From: Promethearchaeum syntrophicum
GTDB lineage: Archaea > Asgardarchaeota > Lokiarchaeia > Sigyniarchaeales > Promethearchaeaceae
NCBI RefSeq assembly: GCF_008000775.2
Contig: NZ_CP042905.2
Span: forward strand, 930,001-962,000
Direction: 5' to 3'
DNA: 32,000 bases
The position numbers and the translations under genes are program-made. Below the pieces are notes generated by a model. It did no database searches and was not told the origin of the DNA. It saw nothing but the letters and a program-made list of their open reading frames with translations. Shown here piece after piece: positions 22,333 to 28,858 of the stretch. The first letter of the stretch is position 1. The number at the start of each line of letters is the position of its first letter.

Positions 22333-23120
22333 AGAAAAATTCAATGCAGAAAATTAAACCCGAAATTAGGACTTCACTAAAAAGTTTAGGTTTTACTGAT
22401 TATAATATAAATATCTACTTAGCACTTCTTAATTCTGGAGAAATGAATGCTCATGAATTATCTAAGAAAACTGGAGTACCTTACTCAAGAATTTACGAAG
22501 TATTAAACGAAATGACAAATAATCAAAAATTATTAACAAAAATCGATGGACGCCCCTCAACCTTTGTTGCAAATAATCCAAAAGAGATTTTTAAATCAAT
22601 TAAACAAAAGAAAGATGATGAATTTGAAGAGAACATGAAAATGTCGCTTCCGTATCTTAATAATCTTTACGGGGATCACAATTTAGCTAAACAGATGTCT
22701 TTTACGGTTTTCGAAGGTGCAAAATCTTGTAGAGATCATGTAAGAAATGTCTTAAACTTCACGGTAAAAAATTTATCATTTTCATTGAAAGAAATTGATG
22801 AGGTTTATAGTGCAATTAAGGTTAATTTCGATTTCTTAAAACGAATCGGCTGCAAAGTACGAATTATTCTTGAGGAACGATTTCGAAATTCAGAAATTTA
22901 TGAAGAAGTAAAAAAAAATTGTGAAATAAGATTTGTTCCAATAATTCATGAAACTCTCTTAATTTCTGATGAAAAAACGGCGATTATGGCAATAAAATCA
23001 AATTTCAATATACTAAAACCTTCAGAAATTTCATTTACAATAATTTCCTCTTCTGATTTAATGTTTGTGACTTTTGTATCTGAAATTTTCAATCGAAATT
23101 GGAAAATTTCAAAAGAATAG
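22329..23120 (+). CDS. TrmB-family transcriptional regulator
   Basis: N-terminal LGFTDYNINIYLALLNSGEMNAHELSKKTGVPYSRIYEVLNEM is the TrmB wHTH signature. The start ATG overlaps the upstream stop (ATGA at 22329-22332). Confidence 0.8.
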   Translation: MKKNSMQKIKPEIRTSLKSLGFTDYNINIYLALLNSGEMNAHELSKKTGVPYSRIYEVLNEMTNNQKLLTKIDGRPSTFVANNPKEIFKSIKQKKDDEFEENMKMSLPYLNNLYGDHNLAKQMSFTVFEGAKSCRDHVRNVLNFTVKNLSFSLKEIDEVYSAIKVNFDFLKRIGCKVRIILEERFRNSEIYEEVKKNCEIRFVPIIHETLLISDEKTAIMAIKSNFNILKPSEISFTIISSSDLMFVTFVSEIFNRNWKISKE

Positions 23121-23145
23121 AGGTATTCGTTTAAAAATTTTGTTT

Positions 23146-23155
23146 AAAAAAAAAA
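23146..23155 (-). terminator. Oligo-U tract (U10 on the minus-strand RNA) downstream of selD and the SECIS candidate
   Basis: A10 on the plus strand at 23146-23155. Archaeal termination typically uses oligo-T tracts. It lies in the convergent spacer between the trmB-like gene and selD. Confidence 0.45.
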
Positions 23156-23173
23156 TGGGTTTCCATTATGCGT

Positions 23174-23227
23174 GGATAATCTCATATAAAAATCCAATGG
23201 TTTATATTTTATATTCATCGATAACCC
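23174..23227 (-). promoter_or_regulatory. Candidate SECIS element in the selD 3'UTR (kink-turn AUGA_AA_GA architecture)
   Basis: Minus-strand RNA: GGGUUAU-CG-AUGA-AUAUAAAA-[UAUAAACCAUUGGAU]-UUUUAUAU-GAG-AUUAUCC. Helix II has 8 perfect bp (23207-23214 with 23184-23191). AUGA (23215-23218) faces GA (23181-23183). The apical loop contains AAA. The lower helix has 5 WC pairs, 1 GU and 1 mismatch. Confidence 0.5.
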
Positions 23228-23240
23228 TTTTTTCATGAAA

Positions 23241-24278
23241 TTACTTGAAATCTGCCACTTCTATGAGAAGATTCTTTTCCTGAAATTTGATTGATTGATG
23301 CTTTTTTGAAATTTTACCCACTTCAAACCACCAAACATTATTATCTTCTAAAGCATGGATAAAATTGTCAAATTCTTTCGGGTCGACCGCTATCAGCATA
23401 GGTCCTGCAATTTCAGGTGAAAATCCCTCACGCAATCGATATCCAAAGTAATCCGCGAGCGAAACTGTTGTAGGTATTACTGGAATCTGTGAAATATCTG
23501 CTCCCAAATTTGAATCTTCAAGCATTTCCTCAAGATGTCCAGCAAAACCAAAGCCAGTAATGTCGGTCATAGCGTGGATTGAGTTGAAGAAATTTCCTTC
23601 ATGGATAACTTTCACAACGTTCCGATTTGAGGTTGTCATGCATTTTACTCCAGTATCGATAGATTTTTTAATTTCATCCAAATTATAATCATCCAATAGT
23701 TTAATTTCACTCTTCATCACCCTATAGGCTGCCATGATCGGCTGAACTCCTAAAGGTTTTGTCAAAATTAGCCGATCTGACATCTTGATTCCTCTCTTAC
23801 CAATGATTTCAGAATTTTTTATAATTGCTGATGCTGATCCTCCGAATAATGGCCATGGATTATATATAGTATGCCCTCCATGCACATCGGTTTCGATATC
23901 TTTGAGAAAATCTCTCATACCATCAATGATCTTTACTGGGAAATCTTTTGGGATATCAGTTGGAACTCCTATGAATGCAGAATAATTTGAAACATTTAAC
24001 GCATTTAACGCAAACAGATCGTTGGTTACATTACATGCTGCAATTTTTCCCATCATATAAGGATCGTCATGAATCGCGGTAAAGATGTCTATATTTGAAA
24101 TTAATTTATCTCCTTTGTCATTAATGGAAATAATGGAGCAATCTTCTGCTTTAGATGGTAACCCAGCGGATGTTAAAATTTCTTTTAATTTTGTGGCAGG
24201 AATTTTACAAGATCATCCATGAAGTGAACACTTTTGTGTCAAAAGATATTCATAAGATTTTTTTCTCTGTTCACTCAT
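23241..24278 (-). CDS. selD: Selenophosphate synthetase SelD, selenocysteine-containing (in-frame UGA at 24213-24215 = Sec, residue 22)
   Basis: The listed ORF (23241..24056) starts at MMGKIAACNV and lacks the catalytic N-terminus. The same frame upstream reads MSEQRKKSYEYLLTQKCSLHG-U-SCKIPATKLKEILTSAGLPSKAEDCSIISINDKGDKLISNIDIFTAIHDDPYMMGK with a single TGA. That TGA sits at the position of catalytic Cys17 of E. coli SelD (GAGCGCK loop). The ATG at 24276-24278 has an SD. The full product is 345 aa, normal for SelD. Confidence 0.9.
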
Positions 24279-24290: not shown

Positions 24291-24347
24291 GATATTGCTA
24301 TTGAAAATTAACATATTAGAATAAATTAAAAGAATTCGGTTTCAAAA

Positions 24348-27095
24348 CTAAAGAATTATTTCTCCTTGCTTGGAGAAACTTTTAATTTCCCCAAATGGGT
24401 TTGTATAAGTTACATTTAACAAGAATTTCTGTAATTCGTAGCGTTTTTGGAGGTCGATATTCTTATCTTTGATTTTAGAAATTCGAAAAACCCATTTAAT
24501 AACGCGAATTGCTTCAGGTTCAAATTCTCGAATAAAAATCTCGGTAGGATCACTATTTTCTTTTTGGTATTGTAAGAATTCAGGATGAATAAAAATCATT
24601 CCGATATCCGATATGAAAAACTTAGTTGGGTTGTATACTCTCAGAGAAAATATTAATTTGGTTCCTATAATTTCAACTTTTCTGAAAAATGATAATAATC
24701 TCTCTTCCATAGGTTTTTGCGGTTGAATTAAAAGATCATCTTCAATTTCTGCTATTATCGTTTGGTTTTGAATTAGTATTATTAATTTTTCTTTAAGTTC
24801 TTTTGTTGTAAGGGATAATATTTTTCCTAAATGTTCAATAGAAATCGGGTTAATATATTTAAGATATTCTTTTATTTCTTCAGTAAAAATAGTCTTATCA
24901 ATTTCGTTTTTAAAACTAAAAATTTTTTCCAAAAGATTGTCTTTAACTTGCGTCCAATTATTTAGATATTTCCTAATTTCATTGGCGGATGTTATTGGTA
25001 TATTAATTTTATCAATGTTCTCATAATTACGATTAATTTCTCTATTATTATCTTCAATAGAGCTATATAAATTATTAATTGTTAATTGAATTAAATTTCG
25101 CGCTTCTTTAAATCTACGAACTTGGATTTCCTTTTTAATAGGTTCAGAAATCTTATCAAATCTCTCCAAAACATCTCGTTGACTTGAAATTGCCTGAATA
25201 ATTATATTCTGCAGATTAGTGCTCAAAAATTCATAAGTAATTTTCTTTTTAAGGGGGGATATTTCATGAGAAACTTCTTTCGTCGTTTCTTGAAAAACAC
25301 TAAACTTATGAAAAACGTTAGCAAGGTATTGTTGTATTTCTATTTTAATATCGATCCAAGTGACTGTAATCTCTTTTAAAAATTCTTTGAATTCCAAATT
25401 ATTTAACCAGGTTTGACCGATATCAAACTCAAGCTTAAATAATTTTTCGCGAATGCTTGAGATATTATTTAAAAATTCCTCTGTTCTTTTAATATCTTCA
25501 TCATCCATTTTTTCTTCAAGAAGAACTTCCATTTTTTTAATAGATTCGTATTCGGTCTTTACTACATCAATTCGATCCTTTAATTCAGAAAGAAGAATAT
25601 CTAATTCTTTAATGTAGTCTGCTCGTCCATCGCAAATTAAGTTATATATTGATGAATTTACATCCGAGATATTTTCAAGTATTTCTTCCTTTATATCTAT
25701 AAAATCTTGAATTACCTCAACATTAAATCTCTTAAATTCTGATTCGTGTAGTATCTTCTCAAATTCATCCAATTTTTCTGCTATTCGATTTCCTTCTTCT
25801 TCTAAAAATATTTCAGATTGGATGAATTTCTTTTGATTAACATAAGATTCTGCTTTTTTTCGTAAATTTTGGGTTTGTTTTTGAAATAAATCTAAATTAG
25901 AATAAAATTTTTTACTTTTTAGAGCAATTTCTTCAATTTCTTTATCAATATCATTAAAAATGTTATTTATTTTTTGTAGAGAAGACTCAATTTCATCTAA
26001 AACATCTAAATCTTCTTCATTTTGCTGCCAATTCTTTAAATTTATCGCTGTCCAGACACAAATTGACTTAATATGTAATACATAGGAAAGATCACCAAGT
26101 AAACTAATAATTTTTTTTCTTTGTCGCCAATCATCAGGATCTAAACTTTGAAATATTATAAAAATTTCTTCTTCGAAACCATCTGGTTTTTCCATATAAA
26201 TTTTCAATAAGCAATTGGTTATCAAATTCCTAATGGGAATCTTTGGAACAACCAGTTGTCCAATCATAATTGGTAACATTTCTTTCATATTTTGAAGCGT
26301 GATATATATTAATGTTTCAGAGATTCCTTGGCCAATATCATCACTAAAATCATTAATAAATGGTTTGAAAAATTCTAGAAGAGCAGGTCCATGATTCATG
26401 CCAATTTTCACAAAAGAATCAATTGTTTTTGTTTGAATTATCATGATTTCATCAGAAAACATCAAAACCAGATTCTGAAAAAGTTTATAAATTTCATCAA
26501 AGAAATAATCTCCAATTTCTCCAATAATCCAAATAATTTTTTCTCTAATCATCCAATCTACATCTTCTAATAGAGGAGATAAAAGTGCATGAATTTTGAA
26601 AGAATCCAAATGAAAACAGAGAGCTTTCAATACTTCAGCTGATAAACCCCGAACTTCTTCATCTGGGTCTCTTAGCAAAATAATCACATTTTCTTTTAAA
26701 ATATCAATCATTTCATTTGGAGGGTCTGATTCTGGTGTTAAAAAGGATAGTACCATTTCCAAAGCCCGTGCTCTCACTGTCCATGAATCATCTTCAAGAG
26801 TTCGACTAAAAGTAAAATAAAGTTCTGGATATTGTATGAAAGAGTTTTTTAAAATAGATCCTACAAGTAAAACCGCGGATTCTCTTACGTTTTTATCAGA
26901 ATCAAAGAGTCTTGCTTCAATTTTTTCTATCAAAACATCAAAATCCTTAGGATGAATTAGATAAAGTTTCTTTAATATTTGAAGCGATTCTTGTCGGATC
27001 CAATATTCAGAATGATCTAATAAGGTATTTATCTTTTCTAAAGTTAAGAGGGCTGTGTGGTCTGATTTATCACTAATATTATTTAAAATTCCCAA
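24348..27095 (-). CDS. Large HEAT-repeat protein: N-terminal HEAT/ARM solenoid, ~350-aa coiled-coil/helical region, winged-helix-like segment, C-terminal beta-rich domain
   Basis: PBS-lyase-type HEAT repeats: DSDKNVRESAVLLVG, DDSWTVRARALEMV, DPDEEVRGLSAEVL, DVDWMIREKIIWIIG, DPDDWRQRKKIISLLG. Then a long E/K/I/L-rich helical region, followed by HLGKILSLTTKELKEKLIILIQNQTIIAEIEDD (wH-like). The last ~130 aa show alternating beta patterns (LIFSLRVYNPTKFFISDIGMIFIHP...). The listed start is TTG at 27095; see the finding on the upstream extension. Confidence 0.8.
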   Translation of the reverse strand: MGILNNISDKSDHTALLTLEKINTLLDHSEYWIRQESLQILKKLYLIHPKDFDVLIEKIEARLFDSDKNVRESAVLLVGSILKNSFIQYPELYFTFSRTLEDDSWTVRARALEMVLSFLTPESDPPNEMIDILKENVIILLRDPDEEVRGLSAEVLKALCFHLDSFKIHALLSPLLEDVDWMIREKIIWIIGEIGDYFFDEIYKLFQNLVLMFSDEIMIIQTKTIDSFVKIGMNHGPALLEFFKPFINDFSDDIGQGISETLIYITLQNMKEMLPIMIGQLVVPKIPIRNLITNCLLKIYMEKPDGFEEEIFIIFQSLDPDDWRQRKKIISLLGDLSYVLHIKSICVWTAINLKNWQQNEEDLDVLDEIESSLQKINNIFNDIDKEIEEIALKSKKFYSNLDLFQKQTQNLRKKAESYVNQKKFIQSEIFLEEEGNRIAEKLDEFEKILHESEFKRFNVEVIQDFIDIKEEILENISDVNSSIYNLICDGRADYIKELDILLSELKDRIDVVKTEYESIKKMEVLLEEKMDDEDIKRTEEFLNNISSIREKLFKLEFDIGQTWLNNLEFKEFLKEITVTWIDIKIEIQQYLANVFHKFSVFQETTKEVSHEISPLKKKITYEFLSTNLQNIIIQAISSQRDVLERFDKISEPIKKEIQVRRFKEARNLIQLTINNLYSSIEDNNREINRNYENIDKINIPITSANEIRKYLNNWTQVKDNLLEKIFSFKNEIDKTIFTEEIKEYLKYINPISIEHLGKILSLTTKELKEKLIILIQNQTIIAEIEDDLLIQPQKPMEERLLSFFRKVEIIGTKLIFSLRVYNPTKFFISDIGMIFIHPEFLQYQKENSDPTEIFIREFEPEAIRVIKWVFRISKIKDKNIDLQKRYELQKFLLNVTYTNPFGEIKSFSKQGEIIL

Positions 27096-27385: not shown

Positions 27386-28858
27386 ATGGCTAAGAAAAAG
27401 AAGAAAATATCATCTGAAGAAAAACTTTCAGCAGATGATTTAGGAATAGTAAAAAAGAAAACTATCACTAAAAAAAAGACCTCCAAGAAGTCTTCTTCAA
27501 AAAAAACAACTACGAAGAAAAAAACCACAAAGAAAACCACAAAAAAAAAGACTACTAAGAAGACTAAAAAAAAAACCACAAAGAAGGTTATAAAAAAAAC
27601 AGATTTTATTCAATCTTCTTGTAATGTCGGCTTAGTGGGACATGTAGATCACGGAAAAACGACTCTTGTAAAAGCCCTTTCTGGAACTTGGACTGAAAAA
27701 TATTCTGATGAGATAAATAGAGGAATAACCATAAAATTGGGTTACGCTGAAGCTGCAATAGATCAATGCCCTAATTGTAATTTAATAATTGCTGAATCAG
27801 TAGCTAATAATTTACGTAAAAGCAAAAAAGATCAAAAAGGAATGTGTCCAAATTGTGGAACAAAGTTAAATTTTAAAAGAAGAATTTCATTCGTTGATGC
27901 TCCAGGTCACGAAATCTTGATGGCAACCATGCTATCGGGAGCTTCCTTAATGGATGGTGCTTTATTATTAATTGCTGCCAATGAAGAATGCCCACAACCC
28001 CAAACTAGAGAACATTTAGCAGCCTTAGGCATTGCAAAAATTGAAAATATTATCATAATTCAAAATAAAATTGACGCAGTTGGAAAAGAAAGAGCAATTG
28101 AACATTATAACCAAATAAAAGATTTTGTTAAAGGAACAATAGCAGAAAATGCTCCTATCATACCAACTTCAGCAATTTTCAACTCAAATATTGATCTAAT
28201 CTCTGAAAAAATTGAAGAAATTATTCCGTCACCTGATCTAGATCATGATTCCGAATTTTTGTTCAATATTGCCAGATCATTTGATGTCAATAAACCCGGT
28301 TCAGAAATTGAAAAAATCAATGGTGGAGTTATAGGAGGAAGTATTATTACTGGTACTATAAGTGTGGGTGAAGAAATTGAAATTCGCCCAGGTTTCAGAT
28401 CTAAGGAAGGTAAATATTCTACTATAATTACTACAGTCGAATCAATTTATGAAGGGAGAAATTCATTAAATTCAGCTAAACCTGGTGGGTTAATAGCAAT
28501 TGGAACAAAATTGGATCCATCACTCACTCGTTCTGATCAATTAATTGGAAATGTTGCGGGAATTCCTGGTACTTTACCAGATGTTCAATATTCTGTGGAA
28601 ATTGAAGCGCATTTACTTAAAGAAGTATTGGGTGCTGAAGAAGAAATTGCTGTAACTCCGATTATAAAGAATGAATTGATAATGATCGTAGTTGGCACAA
28701 GTTTGTCTGCTGGTGTCGTGGAGAAAATTGGAAAGAAAAATACAATTACATTGAAATTAAAACGCCCAATCTGTGCTCTGGATGGATCAATTGTTGCTAT
28801 TAGCAGAAGAATAAAGAACAGATTCAGATTGATTGGTTATGGATACTTAATTTCTTAA
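27386..28858 (+). CDS. eif2g: Translation initiation factor aIF2 gamma subunit with a ~70-aa Lys/Thr-rich N-terminal extension
   Basis: GHVDHGKTTL, DAPGHEILMATMLSGASLMDGALLLIAANEECPQPQTREHL, QNKID, ARSFDVNKPG, zinc-ribbon insert CPNC...CPNCG, C-terminal RFRLIGYG. No alternative in-frame start lies between 27386 and the G1 motif, apart from a GTG inside the G1 motif. Confidence 0.9.
   Translation: MAKKKKKISSEEKLSADDLGIVKKKTITKKKTSKKSSSKKTTTKKKTTKKTTKKKTTKKTKKKTTKKVIKKTDFIQSSCNVGLVGHVDHGKTTLVKALSGTWTEKYSDEINRGITIKLGYAEAAIDQCPNCNLIIAESVANNLRKSKKDQKGMCPNCGTKLNFKRRISFVDAPGHEILMATMLSGASLMDGALLLIAANEECPQPQTREHLAALGIAKIENIIIIQNKIDAVGKERAIEHYNQIKDFVKGTIAENAPIIPTSAIFNSNIDLISEKIEEIIPSPDLDHDSEFLFNIARSFDVNKPGSEIEKINGGVIGGSIITGTISVGEEIEIRPGFRSKEGKYSTIITTVESIYEGRNSLNSAKPGGLIAIGTKLDPSLTRSDQLIGNVAGIPGTLPDVQYSVEIEAHLLKEVLGAEEEIAVTPIIKNELIMIVVGTSLSAGVVEKIGKKNTITLKLKRPICALDGSIVAISRRIKNRFRLIGYGYLIS
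27449..27600 (+). repeat. Low-complexity A-rich coding repeat encoding (K/T/S)n
   Basis: VKKKTITKKKTSKKSSSKKTTTKKKTTKKTTKKKTTKKTKKKTTKKVIKK. AAACCACAAAGAA recurs at about 27522 and 27572. A9-A10 homopolymers are present, yet the reading frame is preserved. Confidence 0.8.

Follow-up and report, generated by a model that had tools for sequence, protein, structure and literature searches.

SECIS (selenocysteine insertion sequence) elements of Lokiarchaeota, or lokiSECIS, were reported by Mariotti et al. (2016; PMC4989117), and according to the text of that paper no existing SECIS tool, whether eukaryotic, archaeal or bacterial, found them. As described there, in all lokiSECIS the stem is preceded by AUGA and followed by GA and the loop opens with adenines, and those of the SPS gene (selD) have a main stem shorter than 9 bp and an extra apical stem, "resembling a eukaryotic type II SECIS". 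The type II model given in the text of Huang et al. (2024; PMC11227280) for Asgard archaea consists of a GA_[G/A]A core, an upper stem of 7-15 bp in which up to 2 mismatches are allowed, a bulge of 4-12 nt with leading adenines, a ministem of 2-8 bp and an apical loop of 2-6 nt; type II is stated there to be the main form for Asgard selD. Here we analyze an RNA element of ~71 nt that follows the selD gene in a 32,000-nt stretch of the Promethearchaeum syntrophicum genome (NZ_CP042905.2, positions 930,001 to 962,000), hereafter the window, whose numbering is used throughout. The element is very probably the genuine selD SECIS of P. syntrophicum MK-D1 (or an identical strain), built as a kink-turn on a three-way junction. 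By its sequence features it belongs to the type II eukaryote-like class, as published for selD.

The selD translation contains a single in-frame UGA, at codon 22. The SelD protein scores 198.9 bits against NCBIfam TIGR00476 (cutoff 125) and has the Pfam domains AIRS and AIRS_C. Its sequence equals that of Lokiarchaeia_GCA_008000775_U, listed among the selenoproteins in the supplement of Huang et al. (2024); GCA_008000775.1 is strain MK-D1 (CP042905.1). The gene was thus already on record as encoding a selenoprotein. The finding is already known in this sense: the class was published as the lokiarchaeal SPS SECIS in 2016 and as the Asgard type II eukaryote-like SECIS (eSECIS-like) in 2024, and the gene is part of the 2024 survey. 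The element is less novel than the initial annotation of this site, which was made from the sequence alone, implied.

The element lies in a 120-nt spacer that separates selD from a convergent gene, which encodes a TrmB-family regulator and has its end at 23120. On the minus strand, 23227..23174 has the sequence GGGUUAUCGAUGAAUAUAAAAUAUAAACCAUUGGAUUUUUAUAUGAGAUUAUCC; this segment begins 13 nt past the selD UAA. The RNA of the spacer reads UUUCAUGAAAAAA-GGGUU-AUC-GAU-GA-AUAUAAAA-UAUAAA-CC-AUU-GG-AU-UUUUAUAU-GA-GAU-UA-UCCAC-GCAUA-AUGGA-AACCC-A-U10. All bases named in the initial annotation, including AUGA, AAA, U10 and the 13-nt offset from the stop, are present. The gene and the parts of the element are as follows.

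24278..23241, minus strand: selD (selenide, water dikinase), 345 codons, ATG at 24278, stop codon UAA at 23243..23241
24215..24213, minus strand: UGA selenocysteine codon, the putative recoding target; codon 22 of selD in the motif LHG-U-SCKIP, 995 nt upstream of AUGA
23227..23157, minus strand: whole element, ~71 nt, a three-way junction
23227-23223, minus strand: P1 5′ arm GGGUU, closing helix of the three-way junction; pairs with AACCC at 23161-23157
23222-23220, minus strand: kink-turn C-stem 5′ strand AUC; pairs with GAU at 23181-23179 in the minimum free energy (MFE) structure, with U23221 and C23220 in conserved pairs
23219-23217, minus strand: kink-turn bulge G-A-U, followed by G.A at 23216-23215; AUGA is 23218-23215, its U, G and A being invariant in 48 relatives
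23214-23207, minus strand: P2 (helix II) 5′ arm AUAUAAAA; perfect 8 bp with 23191-23184
23206-23201, minus strand: A-rich bulge UAUAAA; its AAA at 23203-23201 is invariant in 48 relatives and in the clade
23200-23194, minus strand: P3, type II apical ministem CC-AUU-GG; CC/GG of 2 bp, loop AUU of 3 nt
23191-23184, minus strand: P2 3′ arm UUUUAUAU, partner of 23214-23207
23183-23182, minus strand: GA of the predicted tandem sheared pairs (A invariant, G nearly so), followed by the C-stem 3′ strand GAU at 23181-23179
23176-23162, minus strand: P4 hairpin UCCAC-GCAUA-AUGGA, third arm of the junction, with GC(A) conserved in its loop; seen in the MFE structure of the window sequence
23161-23157, minus strand: P1 3′ arm AACCC, supported by pair counts in the clade and in relatives and by the structure ensemble
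23155-23146, minus strand: U10 run, a probable archaeal transcription termination signal, one base past P1

The window element fits the type II model of Huang et al. in every item (helix of 8 bp with 0 mismatches, bulge UAUAAA plus AU of 8 nt, loop of 3 nt), its 2-bp ministem being at the lower limit. With the lokiarchaeal SPS lokiSECIS and the Asgard type II elements it shares the place in the 3′ untranslated region (3′UTR) directly after a selenocysteine (Sec)-encoding selD, the AUGA, the short stem, the adenines, the apical ministem and the GA, and nothing in it is different in kind. Compared to the type II selD elements of its relatives, the element in the window clade starts 13 nt past the stop and not 1, helix II is one pair longer and all A-U, the ministem of the window is limited to 2 bp, and P1 reads GGGUU/AACCC where the relatives have GAUG/CAUC. 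The accessible text of Mariotti et al. (2016) and Huang et al. (2024), as well as a full-text search, yielded no mention of P1, P4 or the C-stem covariation, which the figures and tables of these papers may show. The text of Huang et al. does give "G[A/U]G_C[U/A]C" lower-stem pairs for selD, and these may be a glimpse of P1 (GAUG/CAUC).

The structure of the element was derived by comparison with related loci. One genome scan and one metagenome scan yielded 75 selD loci, and UGA is found at the same selD codon in every related locus with a readable N-terminal region. In almost all of the 75 loci the stop codon is directly followed by AUGA and a helix of 7-9 bp, then by an A-rich bulge and a ministem, and finally by the return strand and GA; the position of the element and its tie to UGA-containing selD genes are thereby directly observed. 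Among species-representative genomes the nearest selD loci are in three Promethearchaeum metagenome-assembled genomes (81-86% amino acid identity), followed by Lokiarchaeum ossiferum (57%). Two alignments were used. One (A3), made with MAFFT and trimmed by column, holds 48 distinct elements of relatives whose SelD identity is 41-48% and leaves out the window and its clade; the other (A4) consists of five clade sequences, the window included.

Unguided RNAalifold analysis of the 48 relatives produced a three-way junction composed of P1, a SECIS arm (P2 with the ministem P3) and the hairpin P4, with compensatory changes in 16 of 20 pairs. In an explicit pair count 92.4% of cells are paired, a value that none of 500 column shuffles attained (84.5 +/- 0.6%); with slid partners the figure is 29-52%. 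The count with 23 pairs, in which the C-stem was also tested, gives 92.8% versus 84.2 +/- 0.6% (0 of 500) and 32-50%, respectively. The search for compensatory changes in orthologous selD 3′UTRs that had been proposed with the initial annotation was therefore positive, as they occur in 20 of these 23 pairs. The homologs of P1 are 92.5% paired with double changes in three of five pairs; those of P2 are 92% paired with compensatory changes in all 7 pairs; those of P3 (CAC..GUG, 3-4 bp) are 90.6% paired and covary in three of four pairs; and those of P4 are 94.2% paired and covary in five of five. The kink-turn C-stem pair between the base after GA and the base two positions before AUGA is C-G in 35 elements, U-A in 13 and unpaired in none, and the neighboring pair is U-A in 40 and A-U in three, whereas the variable 3b.3n position is paired in only 28. 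The U-G-A, the A of GA, the AAA and the G of the P4 loop are invariant in all 48 elements, and the G of GA is present in 47. These comparisons establish both the secondary structure and the homology of the element.

The five clade sequences agree with this structure. P1 is 100% paired in them with one compensatory change (G-C to U-A in register in L002), the CC/GG of P3 is invariant and 100% paired, and P4 is 88% paired. Since all clade sequences have this CC/GG ministem and its counterpart in the distant relatives is the covarying P3, the element is assigned to type II. The second pair of P2 is U-A in four clade sequences and C-G in L002. Outside the clade, helix II differs fully in sequence at the same length both in Lokiarchaeum ossiferum (L006; GGAGAAAC/GUUUCUUU) and in L005, where it is G-C-rich, so that the all-A-U helix is a peculiarity of the clade.

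This comparison changes the initial annotation of the fold in several places. Its lower helix, GGGUUAU/AUUAUCC, contains a U.U mismatch in the window and is 74% paired in the five clade sequences, where three of its seven pairs vary only by loss of pairing and none is compensated; a helix in this geometry is 51% paired in the 48 distant relatives. Only the two innermost pairs (A23222-U23179 and U23221-A23180) survive, and they join C23220-G23181 as the C-stem. The AUGA had been placed opposite GAG; GA facing GA was retained, but the third G of GAG (23181) pairs with C23220. The supposedly open 15-nt apical loop is UAUAAA-CC-AUU-GG-AU and holds the CC/GG ministem. The perfect 8-bp helix is present in the window, but as a conserved helix it has 7 bp in the clade, since its first pair, A23214-U23184, is Watson-Crick only in the window and is U.U, U.G, A.G and A.G in the four relatives. 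The position of an all-A-U helix II before U10 is likewise correct for the window, while the composition of the helix is specific to the clade and the U-run is common but not universal in relatives. In the Boltzmann ensemble of the 71 nt of the window, P1 has a pair probability of 0.79-0.88, compared to 0.09 for the G-C pairs of the earlier lower helix. The fixed-structure energies of the junction and of the earlier lower-helix fold are nearly equal (-8.5 and -8.9 kcal/mol, respectively), and therefore the choice of fold rests on comparison, not on energy.

A covariance model (R1) was built from the 48 relatives and applied to both strands of the window with filters off. Its best match is full-length, at 23226..23158 on the minus strand (18.2 bits, E ~0.009), and the next best has 12.7 bits and E 0.28. 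The model also matches at the homologous place in the four clade orthologs (23.3, 17.1, 16.3 and 14.4 bits) and in L005 (31.4 bits); it places the element correctly in six of six cases, with helix II slightly out of register. The homologous elements, the covariation and this top match all support the original proposal of a 3′UTR SECIS for the selD UGA, and the proposed eukaryote-like AUGA_GA kink-turn type, reported for Lokiarchaeota, fits the published description of the lokiarchaeal SPS SECIS. A SECIS in the 5′UTR was rejected, as the 69-nt spacer upstream of selD contains neither an AUGA...GA structure nor an R1 match; no better structure was found there. The methanogen GAA_A type had been excluded at the outset, and indeed no such structure (lower stem of 3-10 bp and upper stem of 3-6 bp, with a loop of 3-19 nt) turned up when the 120-nt spacer was scanned for the pattern. 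The loose GAA_A pattern is non-specific, with 89 matches in the window.

Several observations weigh against the identification of the element as a SECIS. The E-value of R1 is modest and only roughly calibrated. The Rfam family RF00031 (SECIS_1) has no match in the window at the gathering threshold, in the region 23100-23300 at E<=10, or in 16 related loci at E<=1, so the scan with SECIS models proposed earlier was negative for the eukaryotic Rfam model and positive for the model built from relatives. The folding that had also been proposed is uninformative in its z-scores, -0.6 for 104 nt and -0.2 for the 54 nt annotated earlier, no better than shuffles, although it favors P1 over the earlier lower helix in the ensemble; unremarkable z-scores are expected, because the A-U helix is flanked by non-canonical pairs. 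The ensemble pair probability of helix II is only ~0.2. In the related locus L032, which has two selD paralogs in tandem, the upstream paralog has TGT (Cys) and its element is still intact, and hence the element does not strictly need UGA. The L032 element is probably a 'fossil' SECIS left after a recent Sec-to-Cys change; the upstream paralog of L053 has TGA where L032 has TGT. According to the text of Huang et al. (PMC11227280), SBP2 is absent from Asgard genomes. Finally, a lokiarchaeal SECIS failed to function in Methanococcus maripaludis, and the lokiarchaeal elements are described as identified bioinformatically (PMC11881835); no assay of function was found for an Asgard SECIS in its own machinery. 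The failure in M. maripaludis is compatible with an explanation by different machinery, though it lends the SECIS reading no positive support.

The 27-35% GC content of the window and the z-scores near zero would be in keeping with a functionless A-U hairpin that arose by chance in a genome of ~30% GC. A loose pattern with a 7-bp stem has three matches in the window versus 0.57 expected, of which those at 24739-24701 and 16606-16573 were discarded, as they are inside open reading frames (ORFs) and at chance level. The strict pattern (AUGA followed by a perfect helix of 8 bp or more, in which G-U counts as a pair, a loop of 8-22 nt that has AA close to the 5′ end, and then GA) nevertheless matches just once when both strands of the 32-kb window are scanned, at the selD 3′UTR site, compared to a mean of 0.21 sites in 100 dinucleotide-preserving shuffles (64 kb, both strands). 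This sole site falls within the single interval of ~100 nt expected for a selD SECIS. Moreover, the structure is kept with compensatory changes down to 41% SelD identity and is matched by the independent model R1. The comparative data effectively refute a chance hairpin, which we regard as extremely improbable. No other credible match that could indicate a second selenoprotein gene or SECIS was found in the window by the strict pattern scan or R1.

The covariation of the C-stem, the 3-nt bulge (N-A-U) and the GA/GA together make up a canonical kink-turn sequence signature, from which sheared G.A pairs and a kinked geometry are predicted. The element resembles the standard kink-turn (Kt-7, box C/D type) in its Watson-Crick C-stem, 3-nt bulge, G.A plus A.G and variable 3b.3n position. 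Archaeal L7Ae binds canonical kink-turn motifs. Such a core would equally be expected of a generic L7Ae-binding kink-turn that is no SECIS, be it a C/D-box-like small RNA (sRNA) or a site in the selD 3′UTR at which regulation depends on L7Ae, and the best Rfam matches to C/D small nucleolar RNAs do have 15-20 bits, those of 15-18.5 bits (E 0.5-8), which arise from GAUGA...UGAG, being counted in favor of this reading. All of them are far below the gathering scores of 43-55. The RUGAUGA, CUGA and C′/D′ arrangement of box C/D sRNAs is not found: the window has a C box CGAUGA, but relatives keep only AUGA and not UGAUGA, and there are no C′/D′ boxes and no guide region. The conserved AAA bulge and ministem are a SECIS hallmark and not a C/D feature, and the place at the 3′ end of selD is fixed in ~70 loci. 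We regard a kink-turn of this generic kind, without a SECIS role, as very unlikely, and assignment as a SECIS is preferred.

The junction below the kink-turn recalls the k-junction (Wang et al. 2014; PMC4005666), a kink-turn with a three-helix junction. P4 adjoins the 3′ strand of P1 without intervening nucleotides, and the two abutting helices could stack coaxially. In k-junctions, however, the third helix is in the non-bulged strand directly opposite the kink-turn loop and coaxial with the C helix (PMC4005666). In the window element, by contrast, the kink-turn is set apart from the junction by the covarying C-stem of 2 bp and by 2-3 unpaired nucleotides, which lie between GA and P4, and strict membership was rejected on these grounds.

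The P4 hairpin has a loop of the UGCR type with an invariant G. Among the 48 relatives the loop has the invariant G and a near-invariant C (UGCA/UGCG, A3 columns 62-64), the window having GCA at 23171-23169. P4 is found in selD elements whose apical part is of type II and in those where it is of type I, and GC(A) is also kept in the loop of four selD elements with a type I apex. This conservation suggests that the P4 loop may make a sequence-specific contact and be more than a spacer.

Oligo-U is a termination signal in archaea, and the U10 run past P1 is plausibly an archaeal terminator. The element as a whole might accordingly be read as a transcription-termination or mRNA 3′-end stability structure, similar to an intrinsic terminator made of P1 and U10, without a role in Sec incorporation and with AUGA, GA and AAA being incidental. 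The U10 is one base after P1, a U-run follows the element in all five clade orthologs, the A-tract before P1 can extend its pairing with the U-run in the MFE structure, and the fold energy is unexceptional. On the other hand, a scan for bacterial-type terminators found nothing at P1/U10. At least 5 U within 30 nt are present in only 21 of the 48 distant relatives, yet the core bases are invariant in all of them (the G of GA in 47). A terminator needs neither the covarying C-stem nor the ministem or the second hairpin, and the element is tied to UGA-containing selD. We consider termination or stability without a Sec role a highly improbable account of the element, and the SECIS assignment is retained.

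The eukaryotic type II SECIS (RF00031) shares with the window element the 3′UTR location, the AUGA_GA core with tandem G.A, the unpaired AAR after helix II, the ministem and the small apical loop. It differs in its longer helix II, that of the window having 7-8 bp (compared with the text of PMC4989117), and in having an internal loop and helix I where the window element has a 2-bp canonical stem and a three-way junction below the core; in addition, the window element has no Rfam SECIS_1 match and SBP2 is reported absent from Asgard. The euryarchaeal GAA_A SECIS (Methanococcales/Methanopyrus) is alike in its 3′UTR location and purine-rich kink-turn-like internal loop, and a homologous aSelB is presumed. 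In contrast to it, the window spacer has no GAA_A bulge and no G-C clamps.

We propose that the element would act in cis from the 3′UTR on UGA-22, ~1 kb (995 nt) upstream. The SECIS arm would comprise a C-stem of 2-3 bp (AUC/GAU), the 3-nt bulge (GAU), tandem sheared G.A/A.G pairs and a helix II of 7-8 bp, topped by the unpaired AAA, the 2-bp ministem and the 3-nt loop. While the ribosome is at UGA-22, the kink-turn may dock an L7Ae-type or other SECIS-binding factor, and the region of AAA and ministem may contact aSelB/EFSec carrying Sec-tRNASec, so that UGA would be read as selenocysteine and not as a stop. U10 past the element would end the transcript. The roles of the kink-turn as an adaptor site and of the AAA/ministem as the aSelB contact are suggested by analogy with the mammalian selenosome, in which SBP2 is on the kink-turn and eEFSec on the apical AAR region (PMC11881835); the protein partners and the UGA recoding activity are likewise ascribed to the element by analogy. 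In the methanogen system, archaeal SelB did not bind its cognate SECIS (PMC11881835).

Related selD loci show further variation around the stop codon and in the core. In most loci of the main group (e.g. L012, L013, L016) the element is 1 nt past the selD stop, while the clade has an A-rich spacer of 13-14 nt. In some relatives P1 contains the selD stop codon itself (UAAUGAUGAC...GUCAUCAUUA), so that a ribosome terminating there has to unwind the SECIS. Three related elements (L029, L041, L070) have UUGA in place of AUGA, GUGA is found in L064 and L009, and AA replaces GA in L059. The GUGA and AA variants are reported for Asgard in the text of Huang et al. (2024; PMC11227280), in whose accessible parts no mention of UUGA was found.

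Tandem selD paralogs are present on some Lokiarchaeial contigs (L032, 62-1168 and 1525-2475; L053, ~170-1279 and 1501-2475). The upstream paralog, of the LFG-x-NCKL type, is directly followed by a type II/junction element scoring 83 bits. The element of the downstream paralog, which is of the IHG-U-SCKL type, is a type I lokiSECIS whose stem has 9 bp and whose loop has 11 nt.

The 69-nt spacer 5′ of selD (24347-24279, minus strand) contains a TATA-like box, UUUUAAUUUAUU, at 24331-24320, which is conserved in the clade orthologs, and a Shine-Dalgarno sequence, GGAGGUGA, is located immediately 5′ of the ATG at 24278. An alternative in-frame ATG at 24314, where the published protein entry starts (MLIFNSNIGGEF-MSEQ...), probably lies upstream of the transcript start, because it is only ~12 nt past the TATA-like box. 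The shorter selD, starting at ATG 24278, is more likely.

Directly upstream of selD, the same strand encodes a 915-aa HEAT-repeat protein (24348-27095, minus strand) with weak PDS5/condensin-Cnd1-like matches. An aIF2-gamma-like GTPase with GTP_EFTU, D2 and eIF2_C domains and ~75 additional N-terminal residues is encoded at 27386-28858 on the plus strand; it is not SelB. No Sec-machinery genes besides selD and no tRNAs were seen among the ten ORFs scanned at 18.3-31.3 kb. In Lokiarchaeum ossiferum (L006 5370-6864) a 16S rRNA gene is located ~1.4 kb downstream of selD on the opposite strand.

In the architecture as corrected here, the element has a canonical kink-turn whose C-stem covaries perfectly, and a three-way junction with a further hairpin that is conserved. 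If these features are truly undescribed, they belong in the search models for Asgard SECIS. Elements of this kind have no Rfam family and escape generic tools. It is conceivable, though unlikely, that the selD SECIS is a protein-ready kink-turn on a junction, with P4 as an undescribed selD-specific accessory module and L7Ae as a pre-SBP2 archaeal SECIS-binding factor. If this were true, P4 could provide, for example, a second protein or ribosome contact that gives SelD synthesis priority or autoregulation at low selenium. The host, MK-D1, is a cultured Asgard archaeon, and the delimited 71-nt RNA could be used with its cognate L7Ae and aSelB. The element thereby bears on what binds archaeal SECIS and on how SBP2-dependent decoding arose.

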